This document shows, piece after piece, positions 29,150 through 34,569 of a DNA stretch of 64,000 nt. The notes beneath the pieces are model-generated. The model did no database searches and was not told where the DNA came from. It saw nothing but the letters and a program-made list of their open reading frames with translations. This DNA comes from Candidatus Thorarchaeota archaeon (GTDB taxonomy: Archaea > Asgardarchaeota > Thorarchaeia > Thorarchaeales > Thorarchaeaceae), in assembly GCA_963726195.1 (NCBI GenBank), contig CAVSBO010000004.1, positions 351,723 through 415,722 of the forward strand, read 5' to 3'. The position numbers and the translations under genes are program-made. The first letter of the stretch is position 1; the number at the start of each line of letters is the position of its first letter.

Positions 29150-30502
29150 CTACTCAAAAGATATGTATCCTGTCTGGAGCAAGATGAGATAGATGACAAT
29201 AGCAGCGCCCATCAGCAGCACATCCTTTGTGGCCATTTTCGTCAGGTCGCGCGGGCCTTGGTAGTCACCAATGAAGACGTAGATGATCTTGTTGAATACC
29301 GATGTGGTTGTGGCGATAATGACTGCGTAAGCCGCTGTCACAAGTGTAATGGCTCCTGTGGAATAGGAAACTGCAGCGATGGAGACCACTGCTCCTGCCG
29401 AAGCGAATCCTCCGATGAATGCAGCGACTATCATTCCCAGCTGATTGAAAGATTGCTGAGCCCAAATCGCCAGCAGCGAGACAAGTGAGAAGACAACTGC
29501 AAACCGGAACGCGGCGTGCAGAGAGAATGGTGAACCGAACCCGGCTTGGATTCTGGTGCTGAGGTCTTCTTTGGATTCCGGCTTCGTTCTTTTCCCTGCT
29601 TCGTACAAGAACCTCAACATGCCCACAAATGTGAGAATGATCAGTGGGCCCAAATACAGTCTGAACAGCTTGAGACTAGGATCGAGAATTACAACCAGTA
29701 ATCCGTTTCTAAGCGCCATTGCGATGTTGGCGAGTATTACGGCCAGTGACATCCTGCCCGGGTATTTCTCCTCGAGCGCGTTGTGAAAATCCACGATGCT
29801 TGACACCGTTGCTTCGCTATTCGCAAATCCTCCGAAGAATCCGAAGAAGTAGGGACCGCGGTCTTTGTACTTCTTCACAAGTATGTAGTTGGCAAACGAA
29901 ATGGACAGTAGGATGACAATCAGGAGGTAGGTCTCAAATAACGGAAATGCAATTGCGCCGATATTGACAGTCGGGTACTGCGTGAGGATTGGCCACAGAA
30001 AGGCAATCAGAACCATCAGCTCGGCCGCGCCAATCATTTCCTCGTGGCTGACAGCAGCCACTGCGGATGCCAGTTCCTCTTTGAAGCTCAAGACCAGAAA
30101 CACGAGGAACGATATCGTCATCGCGAAGACTTCTAGTTCTCCGAGGGGCCGAATTGGTGTCGCCGTAGAATCCATACCCACCAATGCGCCTAGGACGAAG
30201 GATATGGCAAACACGACTGATGTGGTCAGGCCCTTCCGAGTGGTCCTGAATACCTTGTACACAACTGAGACCGTGGAGATGACGATGGAAATGCATATGG
30301 CGTAGATGAGGACGTACGGGTTATTGTAGACACGATATATGTAGGCGGCTACGGTGCCGAGCAGGCTGTGAAGTCCGAATGTCCTCACTCCCAAGGACAT
30401 CTCTTCTGTCATTCGCTTTTGTCGCTCAAGACCTATCAGAGCGCCTACTCCAAACCCGACTAGGCACATCATCACGAGGTCAGGAGTGACAATTACCTGC
30501 AT
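29150..30502 (-). CDS. MgtC/SapB-DUF4010 family membrane protein
   Basis: GALIGLERQ...GVRTF N-terminus, GFFGGFANSEAT and many TM segments. Confidence 0.85.
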   Translation of the reverse strand: MQVIVTPDLVMMCLVGFGVGALIGLERQKRMTEEMSLGVRTFGLHSLLGTVAAYIYRVYNNPYVLIYAICISIVISTVSVVYKVFRTTRKGLTTSVVFAISFVLGALVGMDSTATPIRPLGELEVFAMTISFLVFLVLSFKEELASAVAAVSHEEMIGAAELMVLIAFLWPILTQYPTVNIGAIAFPLFETYLLIVILLSISFANYILVKKYKDRGPYFFGFFGGFANSEATVSSIVDFHNALEEKYPGRMSLAVILANIAMALRNGLLVVILDPSLKLFRLYLGPLIILTFVGMLRFLYEAGKRTKPESKEDLSTRIQAGFGSPFSLHAAFRFAVVFSLVSLLAIWAQQSFNQLGMIVAAFIGGFASAGAVVSIAAVSYSTGAITLVTAAYAVIIATTTSVFNKIIYVFIGDYQGPRDLTKMATKDVLLMGAAIVIYLILLQTGYISFE

Positions 30503-30614
30503 ACACTATCACCATCGGGATCTACGACAACGCATTCAATGGCTCTTAAGGGGTACTATTACGCATCTCGTTGCCATTTGGCTTTTTACGGAAAAAGAAG
30601 ATGGAAGTTGGATT

Positions 30615-31277
30615 CTATTCCAACTTCGTGCTTTTTAGCAGAATTGACAGGGGAATATCGAAATGCTGCCCGGTTGGTAGGGTTCTTCTCACGGTCATGG
30701 GAAGTGCACCTGCCTTCAGTTCAGCCTCAGCGAGGGCAAACAGTCCTTTCGGGGCAGTGCTCATATCGATGAGTACGGGGGCGCCCATTGATATCTGAAG
30801 TGCACGAGCACCAATCACTCTGGCTCTCTCGTACTTCGTCAACCACTTCGGACCGATCTCTATACCCATCTCTTTCTTCTCTCTGTCATACCCGGTCTGC
30901 AATGACGCGACTTCGTCCTCGTGAGCCAGCTCGGTTGCAGGAGGCAGTTCTACCTTTTCGGGTTCGGCATCGGTGCTCTTCTTGCGTTTAGCCTTCTTGC
31001 CCTTCTCTTCCGCTTCGGCCGCGGACTCCTCCAAGAAGGACTTTGCTTCGTTGATTATGACCTCTGCCTTTGCCTCGCTCAGACCAGGAACTGCACCAGC
31101 TAGCGTTTCGGCATCCACTGCAGCAATCTTCTCGACATCGCCGTAACCGGCAGCTGCAAGCTTCTCAGCAGTCTTTGGTCCCACGCCGGGAATCTTGGTC
31201 AGGACGAAAGACCGTTCTGGTTCTTCCTCGATGAACTCCTCGTTCTCGTTCTCTTCCGGGTCGAAGTCTTCTGCCAT
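30615..31277 (-). CDS. rpo6: RNA polymerase subunit Rpo6 (K) with acidic N-tail and fused helix-hairpin-helix domain
   Basis: C-terminal [22 protein letters not shown]...[10 protein letters not shown] signature. N-terminal [12 protein letters not shown]...VPGLSEAKA HhH pair. Confidence 0.92.
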
Positions 31278-31310
31278 TAGTCGCACCTTTTCGTCATACC
31301 AACGGGGTCT

Positions 31311-32978
31311 CTAGTCTTGGTCGAGTTCCCTATCGTGTTCTCCCTTGCCCTTGCCGCCCGGAGAGCCCATTCCCTTCTTGCCTTTGGAGCTAATCACATC
31401 GTCGATTTTCAGAATCATCTGTGAGGCCTCTGCGGCAGAAGCGATAACTTGCCTCTTGACAAGTGTTGGTTCAATGACGCGAGATTTCTTCATGTCGCCA
31501 ACCTTCCCCTTTTCAACGTCGATTCCGAATGTGACCTTGCCTTCGGAGTGTGCCGTTCTAAGGTCAACAAGCGTATCAATTGGTTCGAGGCCAGCGTTCT
31601 CCGCAAGCGTTGCAGGGATAGACTCTATTGCATCTGCGAACGAGTTCACAGCGTACTGCTCTCTTCCTTCGAGAGTCGATGCCAACTGACGGAGCTTCAT
31701 GGCTACCTCGGTCTCGACTGCACCTCCTCCGTAGTTAATCTTCGGGTACTTCATGACATCACGCACAACCCAAAGAGCATCGTTCACGACACGGTCAACT
31801 TCGTCGACAACGTGTTGAGTGCCACCCCTGATTAGGATGGTTACTGCTGATGAGAATGGCGTTCCCTCGACGAAGACCATTTTGTCATCGCCGATTTTCC
31901 TCTGCTCAACGAGCTTTGCTTTTCCGAGGTCTGCCTTAGTGAGCATGTGAATCTTTGAAACGATCGCAGCTCCTGTGGCCTTGTGAAGTCTCTCCACATC
32001 TGACTTCTTGATTCTTCTAACGGCTAGGATACCATTCTTGGCAAGATAGTGCTGGGCCACGTCATCAATCCCTTTCTGGCAGATTACGACGTTCGCTCCT
32101 GATTCAATGACTTTGTCAACCATGGTCTTGAGAAGTCTCTCCTCCTCACCAAGGAAGTCCTGCATCGACTGAGGATCATGAATCGCAATCTTGGCCGTGA
32201 TCTCTGTCTTTGTAATCTCGAGTGGACACTCCAAGAGAGCTATCCGGGCCGCTTCCACCTTTGTTGGCATACCCGGATGAATAACCTCCTTGTCAAGGAC
32301 GATGCCCTTCACGAGTTCGGTTGACAGGAACGACAAACCGTGCTGCTTCTGACGAGGTAGGTTTTCCATGTCAATCTCTTCACCGGGCTGCAATGACTTG
32401 GCCACAGACATGACTGCGTCCACTACGACTTCTGCTAGAGTATCTCTTGAGGTGGACACAAACTTGCTCGACATTGCGGTCTTAGCAACGTCAATCAGCA
32501 GCTTCCTGTATCCGGGGTCCTTAGGATCCACGGTCTCAGCCGCAGAATCGATGATCTGCGAGGCTTTGTCAGCTGCTTTCCTATAGCCGCTGATTATCGT
32601 GGTGGGGTGTATCTTCTGATCCAGAAGCGTCAGAGCTTGCTTCAGCAGCTCACCCGTGAGGACAGCCGCGGTGGTTGTGCCATCGCCCACCTCAGAGTCG
32701 ACTGTCTTGCTAACTTCTATTACCATCTTTGCGGCTGGATGTGCGATATCCATCTCCTTCAGAATCGTAGCGCCATCGTTGCTGATCGTTACGTCACCAA
32801 AAGAGTCCACAAGCATCTTGTCCATGCCCTTTGGACCCAAGGCTGACTTGACTGCTTCAGCAACTACCATTGCCGCCATGATGTTGTTTCTTTGGGCATC
32901 CCGGCCAGTGTTCCGTTCTGTGCCTTCTCTGAGTATCAAAACCGGAACACTTTGGCCACCCTGTTGACTCACAATCAT
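31311..32978 (-). CDS. ths: Thermosome (group II chaperonin) subunit
   Basis: [29 protein letters not shown] and ILKIDDVI. Confidence 0.96.
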
Positions 32979-33154: not shown

Positions 33155-34078
33155 TCACAATCCCGAAATGATAAGCCTCCGCAGCACGATGTTGTCACCT
33201 TTCTTTGCGTCGAGGGCTTGGGCTATGTGGGGGCACTTGGCTTTCAACACGTAGTAGGTCTCGACACCCGATTCACTCTGAATCTCAGGAAATGTCTCCA
33301 CATTCGCTTGTCCCTTGGAGATTACGAGTTGACTTCTTGCGACCAGTTCGAGGAACTGGCGGCTTACCCATTTCTTAGGAACTCCGAGTGCCCAAGCCCC
33401 TGTGTTGGAAACCTCTGCAAATTCCTCAATGCCTGAACCCATCACATCTTCTTCCGTCGCGTCATTCACCATGGCTCTGGCTTTGACAACGAAGTTGATT
33501 GTCCATCCCATTTCCTTGGCGAACTTCAGGAAAGGTATGTCGAAGTAGGTCTCTCCGGCGTTGTCAGCAAGGTATGTCAACAAGCCTGCCCTCGAGTTGA
33601 GCGATTTCCATAGCTGCTTCGAGTTGTCAATCGCGAATCCCTCTTCGATTATGCGGGTGAACGAAGACCGGAGGCCGCCCAAGTCAGGTTCGTAACTCGC
33701 TGTGTTGTAGTCTATCAGATTGCCTGCAATTGCTGCTGCGAGCGCCGCCCTGAGACGGTCATAGCCAAACTTCGACGTTACCTGCTCATCGACCCAAGGC
33801 AGAGTCTTCTTGGCAGCCTCAATGCTGAGTCTCTTTATTTCGCTCAGGGGGTTTTCAGCTCCCTTCAAGGAATACAGTTCTTGATACAACAGAATTGATA
33901 GATCGACGGGAGGTGTCCTCTTCTTGTAGCCTTCGGAGAGTCGCTTGAATGCTAGCCTATACAGCTCAAACTGCTCCTCCTTGTTCTTGGATATGAGTGG
34001 CAACAGCGTCTGAAGGCTGTTCAGGATGCACGAAGAGCATTCGGGTATGAGGGGAACCTCAATATCATTCGTCGACAA
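33155..34078 (-). CDS. ARMT1/DUF89 damage-control phosphatase
   Basis: ECSSC N-terminus, AIAGNLID, DNAGE, NDAT, SKGQAN and KAKC. Confidence 0.9.
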   Translation of the reverse strand: MSTNDIEVPLIPECSSCILNSLQTLLPLISKNKEEQFELYRLAFKRLSEGYKKRTPPVDLSILLYQELYSLKGAENPLSEIKRLSIEAAKKTLPWVDEQVTSKFGYDRLRAALAAAIAGNLIDYNTASYEPDLGGLRSSFTRIIEEGFAIDNSKQLWKSLNSRAGLLTYLADNAGETYFDIPFLKFAKEMGWTINFVVKARAMVNDATEEDVMGSGIEEFAEVSNTGAWALGVPKKWVSRQFLELVARSQLVISKGQANVETFPEIQSESGVETYYVLKAKCPHIAQALDAKKGDNIVLRRLIISGL

Positions 34079-34569
34079 CGGCCTCGGCCCCCGGCTGAGG
34101 TTCGAGCTTCTTGGTCATGAGGTAAGCGTCCTCACCATCCCTATAGTACCCTTTGAGAACGCGTTTGATTTCAAACGCCATGTTCTCGTAGATGGAGACT
34201 GCGGCTTCGTTTGATTTCCGAACCTCAAGGAAGCACTCAGCCGCGCCGTAGATTGACATGCTGTCCATTGCTGCCTTCACGAGGTCAGACCCCACACCTT
34301 GCCGGCGGCTCTCTGGCATAACTGCTACAGAAACAATATGCCCTTTCTTCACAGGAAGGCGACCGTAGCTGGATACTCCTCTTTCTATCCTACACATAAT
34401 GTACCCGATAACGCGGTTGTCGTCAAGGGCAACAAGGAACGCCTTTGGAGCGTGATAATAAAGACCTAGGAAGAAGTCTGTCTGGGTAGTTTTCAGGAAG
34501 GCAAGTCCTGTTGATTTCCATTACGCTCTCTAGGTCGTCTCGTTCGAACTGCCTTAGGACCCAAGCCAT
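34065..34569 (-). CDS. ard1: N-terminal protein acetyltransferase Ard1/RimI; frameshift at ~34480
   Basis: MAWVLRQFERDDLESVMEINRTCLPENY in the upstream frame, then GHIVSVAV, LEVRKSN and YYRDGEDAYLM. Confidence 0.88.

Follow-up and report, generated by a model that had tools for sequence, protein, structure and literature searches.

The window analysed here is a stretch of 64,000 nucleotides from Candidatus Thorarchaeota, and its minus strand carries at 30615..31277 the gene for RNA polymerase subunit Rpo6 (rpo6, also rpoK). Translation and domain profiles identify the product, 220 amino acids long, as a fusion of a helix-hairpin-helix (HhH) domain with Rpo6. The frame read from 31277 to 30615 has 220 codons and zero internal stops; the original prediction had described an uninterrupted open reading frame of this length, and every motif quoted there is found in the translation. 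A GGTG resembling a ribosome-binding site lies just 5' of the ATG at 31277 and favours this codon as the start over the GTG at 31286. Directly upstream is a thermosome subunit gene (31311..32978, minus strand) and downstream an MgtC/DUF4010 membrane protein gene (29150..30502, minus strand), both conserved neighbours; HisRS and then a Memo-like gene follow the latter. This context points to no interaction partner. The thermosome gene also precedes rpo6 in Asgard families whose Rpo6 bears no HhH, and the adjacency is kept in several families beyond Thorarchaeota (f6, f11, f28, f29 and f31).

Some smaller features of the window deserve mention. A 9-bp inverted repeat at 30604-30627 overlaps the stop codon of rpo6 and is flanked on both sides by T-rich runs; overall it does not rise above the shuffle background. 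The promoter and terminator scan, which is of bacterial type, is uninformative. Further along, a GNAT acetyltransferase (34065-34397) seemingly has its N-terminal part in another frame (34423-34569), possibly owing to a frameshift or an assembly error.

The fusion begins with an acidic, low-complexity N-tail (aa 1-23; 31209..31277, minus strand) that carries a net charge of -11, is poorly conserved and has pLDDT <50 for aa 4-18. It is followed by an (HhH)2 domain of the RadA/Rad51-N HHH_5 type (aa 24-83; 31029..31208, minus strand), with a net charge of -3 and near-invariant G33, K35, K39, G65, S67 and K70. The tandem HhH read from the sequence is borne out by Pfam HHH_5, which scores 57.1 bits against a cut-off of 27 over residues 26-79, and by a five-helix fold with two hairpins (helices at 3-7, 15-23, 29-34, 37-43 and 49-71 in domain numbering). 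Next come the end of the long fifth helix and a conserved basic patch (aa 84-101; 30975..31028, minus strand). This patch, defined as at least 5 K/R within 8 residues, was quoted as part of the predicted linker and is present in 118 of 119 homologues; lying after the last helix, it renders residues 24-101 of the present protein neutral as a whole. A Pro/acidic linker (aa 102-131; 30885..30974, minus strand) conserves P106, L111, P113, L126, T128 and G129, and is probably docked in part on the polymerase.

The remainder of the protein (aa 132-220; 30618..30884, minus strand) is the Rpo6/RPB6 core with its C-terminal beta-finger. It is as canonical as had been proposed, since NCBIfam RpoK (NF002207) scores 98.4 bits against a cut-off of 71 over residues 132-219 and the core superposes on RPB6/Rpo6 chains with an rmsd of 1.5-1.7 Å in Foldseek; Pfam PF01192 (RNA_pol_Rpb6) covers residues 143-176 at 27.2 against a cut-off of 26. 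An AlphaFold2 (AF2) model places the five-helix domain at 22-93, a coil at 94-128, and then the usual core, with two central helices (148-163 and 181-189) and a beta-finger (strands 195-199 and 205-209). Its pTM of 0.41 means that the HhH domain and the core have no fixed relative position, in keeping with the proposed flexible tether. A homodimer prediction for the HhH domain scored 0.01 and carries no weight either way. Two homologues have the HhH domain twice.

A search of the 2.9-Mb assembly (88.9% complete) with a core profile finds one Rpo6, namely the fusion. Because the assembly holds no second copy, the fusion is most likely the working subunit, and its sole-copy status suggests that it would be built into the polymerase in vivo.

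The architecture is a family-wide trait. Searching 400 genomes across the phylum with the fusion profile gives a match in this genome and in 79 of the other 85 family members; within the family, PF01192 detects an Rpo6 of any kind in exactly these genomes. All 80 of these genomes carry the fusion, 78 at full length and 2 cut by contig ends inside the HhH; these two partial matches might be taken for truncated fusions, but they reflect contig ends. Not one stop codon lies within the fusion among the 80 genomes. The best 120 of 336 homologues match across 84-100% of the length, and homologues with names are almost all Candidatus Thorarchaeota. Chance or misassembly is thus excluded as the source of a fusion that recurs, full length and stop-free, in 78 independent genomes and in homologues of near-complete length. 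The fusion is confirmed as real, family-wide and conserved.

Database entries of 82-84 amino acids (P0325, P0327) look like split or short forms; they are mis-started or assembly-gap calls of the full fusion. A contig assigned to a bacterium, TA06 bacterium DG_26 (GCA_001304335.1; L180:997-1749), holds the thorarchaeal block of thermosome, rpo6 and MgtC; it is probably misbinned, and its 82-aa gene call results from a late start.

Outside the family, the survey of Asgard Rpo6 architectures gives a different picture. Among the matches listed at a looser threshold (to about 4e-27), no Rpo6 of another Asgard family has an N-terminal HhH, and the earliest start of a listed non-family match, at position 67, corresponds to a Lys-rich tail. 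In the sister family, represented by one genome, rpo6 occupies the same locus, in the order thermosome, rpo6, MgtC/DUF4010 and HisRS, but its product has an acidic tail and lacks HhH. In a tree of 136 domains, the HhH modules of Rpo6 share a single long-stemmed clade (100/99). A single gain of HhH on Rpo6 in the family ancestor is the simplest history.

The module itself is far more widespread than its attachment to Rpo6. Besides RadA, this genome has two copies on Topo VI-A and one on a multi-pass membrane protein; across the class, genomes contain 4-20 HhH matches. Topo VI-A bears up to 7 copies and eL32 between 1 and 4; further hosts are eS25, HEAT-repeat proteins and very large proteins (>2000 aa). 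Copies on eL32, eS25 and HEAT-repeat proteins are scattered in the domain tree, and those of one genome frequently group together, a sign that the module was copied repeatedly and recently. The tag is promiscuous, yet on Rpo6 it was fixed early.

Several of these hosts are of interest in their own right. Topo VI-A with 2-7 basic N-terminal modules occurs across Thorarchaeota (in this genome at C3:511463-513682, L105; elsewhere L100 and L159-L178). Thorarchaeal eL32 has 1-4 N-terminal and eS25 1-2 C-terminal copies, and HEAT-repeat and membrane-anchored proteins of >2000 aa are tagged as well (L085-L098, L110). A multi-pass, MFS-like membrane protein carries a C-terminal HhH (C3:56800-58410, L111; L103, L113), also in the sister family. 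Copy number is highest (11-20) in genera g10, g13, g14 and g15.

Such mobility raises the question of whether the Rpo6 copy is simply tolerated, as a passenger or a tag for stability: a mobile module that inserted into a permissive tail and whose only constraint is to remain folded. The many unrelated hosts, the clustering of copies by genome and a sister family that manages without the domain would suit such a history. Against it stand the absence of any loss in 80 genomes and the rate of evolution. Across eight pairs that are close and mutually independent, the HhH has a dN/dS of 0.063, the basic/Pro segment one of 0.061 and the core one of 0.057, so that the HhH on Rpo6 is under purifying selection like the core, whereas the N-tail is the least constrained part (dN/dS 0.24, 34% identity). 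Surface lysines, moreover, are near-invariant only in the Rpo6 copies; K70, for example, is kept in 100% of Rpo6 modules versus 17% of Topo VI-A modules. A passenger is very unlikely on this evidence.

The conserved surface invites comparison with recombinases. K39, G65 and K70 of the fusion align with K40, G65 and K70 of human RAD51, and are conserved in 95%, 100% and 100% of 46 Rpo6 modules. Invariance at the surface is greatest in the Gly/Lys set of the hairpins, which touches DNA in RadA/RAD51. At the positions of RAD51 K64 and K73 (Sso K60), the residues are non-basic. The net charge of Rpo6 modules averages -2.9, compared with +4.7 for Topo VI-A modules, and E38, E49, D55 and E57 are conserved acidic residues.

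Structural searches name more than one relative. Archaeal RadA N-terminal domains superpose over 57-59 residues with an rmsd of 0.8-1.0 Å and TM 0.72-0.76, a Topo V repeat ranks second, and the top profile matches are likewise Topo V and RadA. VIA-align, a full-alignment structural search, places NusA AR1 (with lambda N) and AR2 (with alpha-CTD) first, with Z of 10.7 and 9.9 and rmsd of 1.5-1.9 Å. The original prediction had seen in the domain a functional analogue of the bacterial alpha-CTD. This analogy is not supported, as the fold matches are RadA/Rad51-N, NusA acidic repeats and Topo V repeats, and the module is lineage-wide rather than polymerase-specific. PF03118 (RNA_pol_A_CTD) has no match in the protein at E<=0.1; alpha-CTD is absent among the fold matches listed, which leaves room for homology.

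The structural ranking brings forward a protein-interaction function like that of NusA acidic repeats, in which an acidic face would recruit some basic protein, be it a transcription factor, a histone or a component of repair or of the ribosome, or would fold onto the protein's own basic patch as a switch. The net negative charge and the four conserved acidic residues agree with such a role, and the genome that encodes the fusion also encodes a histone. The literature further places a contact region for TFE on Rpo6, with an AF3 model reported to suggest additional contacts with Rpo5/RID (PMC13257274). However, the most invariant surface is the hairpin set that contacts DNA in RadA/RAD51, and sequence identity is 42-45% to RadA-N versus 24-33% to NusA AR. 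The NusA acidic-repeat profile TIGR01954 reaches 17 bits, below its cut-off of 48.15, and gene context hints at no partner. We regard a protein-binding role as somewhat unlikely.

The ribosomal hosts of the module suggest another function. An RNA-binding arm might hold the nascent transcript near the stalk or exit channel, or help to couple the polymerase to ribosomes whose eL32 and eS25 often bear the same module; it occurs on these proteins in several genera, and on haloarchaeal eL32. Rpo6 adjoins the polymerase stalk. Its location at the base of the polymerase clamp (PMC8754651) would also suit this arrangement. We nevertheless consider it unlikely, given that eL32 and eS25 of this genome lack the module while Rpo6 has it, and that the mutational data considered for the fold concern dsDNA, whose binding by Sulfolobus RadA requires K27, the equivalent of RAD51 K40 (PMC1964548).

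Nucleic-acid binding by the HhH of Rpo6 is plausible, and we give roughly even weight to the proposal that the domain is a weak, sequence-independent tether to DNA or chromatin, functionally like Rpo13, and to all else. The proposal draws support from the RadA-NTD fold, the conserved K39, G65 and K70, the near-universal basic patch and the core-like dN/dS. It is further supported by the single clade of Rpo6 modules as against the scattered eL32, eS25 and HEAT copies, and by other Asgard Rpo6 that bear a C-terminal HhH or Lys/Ala-rich tails. RAD51 K70 is located at the DNA of the nucleosome and is important when RAD51 binds nucleosomes (PMC10990931). Precedents for appended DNA-binding elements exist: the C-terminus of Rpo13 binds dsDNA non-specifically (PMC3479171), and eight Topo V (HhH)2 repeats raise the efficiency and salt range of phi29 polymerase (PMC8313265). 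The proposal is weakened by the net acidity of the domain and the non-basic K64/K73 equivalents, by the best structural Z going to the protein-binding NusA AR1/AR2, and by the presence of the module on ribosomal and membrane proteins, which makes it not clearly DNA-specific. Tethering just one HhH motif of Topo V to T7 RNAP, in addition, did not improve salt tolerance (PMC12630135).

On this reading, the protein is the ordinary Rpo6 of a thorarchaeal polymerase, whose charged N-terminal extension captured one mobile (HhH)2 module in the family ancestor and has kept it since. The Rpo6 core would assemble at the clamp base, as in all Rpo6/RPB6 structures, with the distal linker docking on the enzyme. 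The lysine face of the HhH (K35/K39/K70) and the basic patch would then weakly grip the backbone of duplex or histone-wrapped DNA beside the polymerase, with no sequence preference. Because the domain is tethered to the polymerase, even a weak grip could stabilise polymerase-DNA complexes during loading, retention or processivity, a role shown for the Rpo13 tail in Sulfolobales.

Thorarchaeota are not alone in adding HhH to Rpo6. One or two copies stand at the C-terminus of Rpo6 in one genome of family f10, six protein clusters and one fragment (loci L066:652-1227 in G049:C41 and L182:4001-4723; proteins P0121-P0126). The nearest named relatives of these proteins are Kariarchaeaceae and Heimdallarchaeota LC_2, and close relatives have no HhH or a long Pro/Ala/Lys repeat tail in its place (P0127, P0128). 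The Kari-type HhH groups with other non-thorarchaeal Asgard HhH domains. It lies apart from the thorarchaeal module in free trees, with a common origin not rejected (AU p=0.07); a grouping of the thorarchaeal module with RadA, a possible donor, is likewise not rejected (AU p=0.29). On a plain reading, the opposite termini and the HhH-less relatives around both point to two separate fusion events.

Other Rpo6 architectures were encountered as well. In Asgard family f23, a frame for the lactate racemase LarA (557 and 584 aa) ends in the Rpo6 core, at L027:82-1755 (G283; Lar_N, LarA_C and Rpb6 by Pfam), L068:2121-3875 (G282) and L065:3243-3986 (G280). At L126:1129-2706 (G052:C157), the core lies inside a 525-aa frame with an additional N-terminal domain and a C-terminal Cys cluster, of which Pfam names only Rpb6. 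The C-terminal region of that frame is presumably akin to a PD-(D/E)xK nuclease.

A broader synthesis can be envisaged from both fusions. Asgard polymerases may twice have gained a Rad51-N-like Rpo6 module, N-terminal in Thorarchaeota and C-terminal in Kariarchaeaceae-like archaea, as a built-in reader of histone-wrapped DNA that would use the nucleosomal-DNA lysine of RAD51 and help the polymerase to engage or cross archaeal chromatin, all within a lineage-wide system of HhH tags bringing polymerase, Topo VI, ribosomes and membrane proteins to the nucleoid. Taken as one claim, this synthesis is speculative and a little less probable still than an RNA-binding arm.

The acidic tail had also led to the suggestion of an evolutionary intermediate toward eukaryotic RPB6. 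No TFIIH p62 is known from archaea. Human RPB6 binds the PH domain of this subunit via Phe13 in an acidic string (PMC8754651). Acidity itself is common, being found in the N-tail of 109 of 119 homologues. An RPB6-like tail is nevertheless not supported: an acid-flanked Phe, as in the p62-binding motif, occurs in only 7 of the 119, mostly the nearest relatives of this genome, within a tail of low constraint. Long charged N-tails of Bathy-, Thaum- and other Asgard Rpo6 are moreover described as lacking homology to RPB6 tails (PMC13257274). No HhH is present in eukaryote-type RPB6 among the representatives compared. In a core tree of 86 columns, whose bootstrap has not settled and whose 'Euk' and 'TACK' row labels follow the author's reading of the sequences, the closest relative of the family is its HhH-less sister (100/98), with eukaryote-type rows placed elsewhere; a clade of eukaryotes and Thorarchaeota on these columns is not rejected (AU p=0.22). 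With both the sister and the eukaryote-type proteins lacking HhH, the notion of an intermediate is not borne out; it is without positive support, and we consider it extremely improbable.

The existence of the fusion is already published. Shematorova and Shpakovski (2026; PMC13257274) note the domain in passing on Thorarchaeota Rpo6, with MHA1137641.1 as example. Theirs is the only paper linking the two that was found in a literature search with subscription papers outside its reach. It treats the same protein family in a few sentences on one example, and its available text gives no RadA-N/HHH_5 class, survey, selection analysis or experiment, nor the C-terminal fusion or the mobile-tag context. 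The question of prior annotation has a divided answer: the fusion is in print, whereas databases name the protein only as subunit K, with both domains detected by Pfam. The present analysis adds a survey of the whole family, the result on selection, the context of a mobile tag and the second fusion.

Rpo6 is among the most size-conserved polymerase subunits, and a fixed extra folded domain across an Asgard family is a real departure in archaeal transcription. The second fusion at the opposite end suggests that Rpo6 is a favoured site for such additions. The surprise is limited, both by the prior publication and because Thorarchaeota append HhH modules to proteins quite generally, this fusion being one instance. 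Nor does it explain where the RPB6 tail of eukaryotes came from.

Set beside known systems, the protein is a variant of a known subunit. It shares core sequence and fold with archaeal Rpo6/RpoK (NF002207) and eukaryotic RPB6, and differs in about 130 additional N-terminal residues that include a folded domain, and in having no conserved p62-binding Phe motif. Its HhH resembles the RadA/Rad51 N-terminal (HhH)2 in fold (rmsd about 0.9 Å), sequence identity and K40/G65/K70 equivalents. Unlike that domain, it lacks the K64 and K73 equivalents, is joined to a polymerase subunit and has a one-residue insertion before the second hairpin, an insertion common to most thorarchaeal modules and the Topo V repeat. 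NusA AR1/AR2 and the bacterial alpha-CTD are also HhH-class domains on a flexible tether near RNA polymerase; they are, however, bacterial, and the AR domains bind proteins. Haloarchaeal eL32 with an N-terminal HhH and the (HhH)2 repeats of Topo V show the same type of module added to core machinery, though on other host proteins. Rpo13 of Sulfolobales is a separate subunit without HhH; added to the polymerase in one lineage and equipped with a basic tail for non-specific dsDNA binding (PMC3479171), it would offer the closest functional model for HhH-Rpo6.
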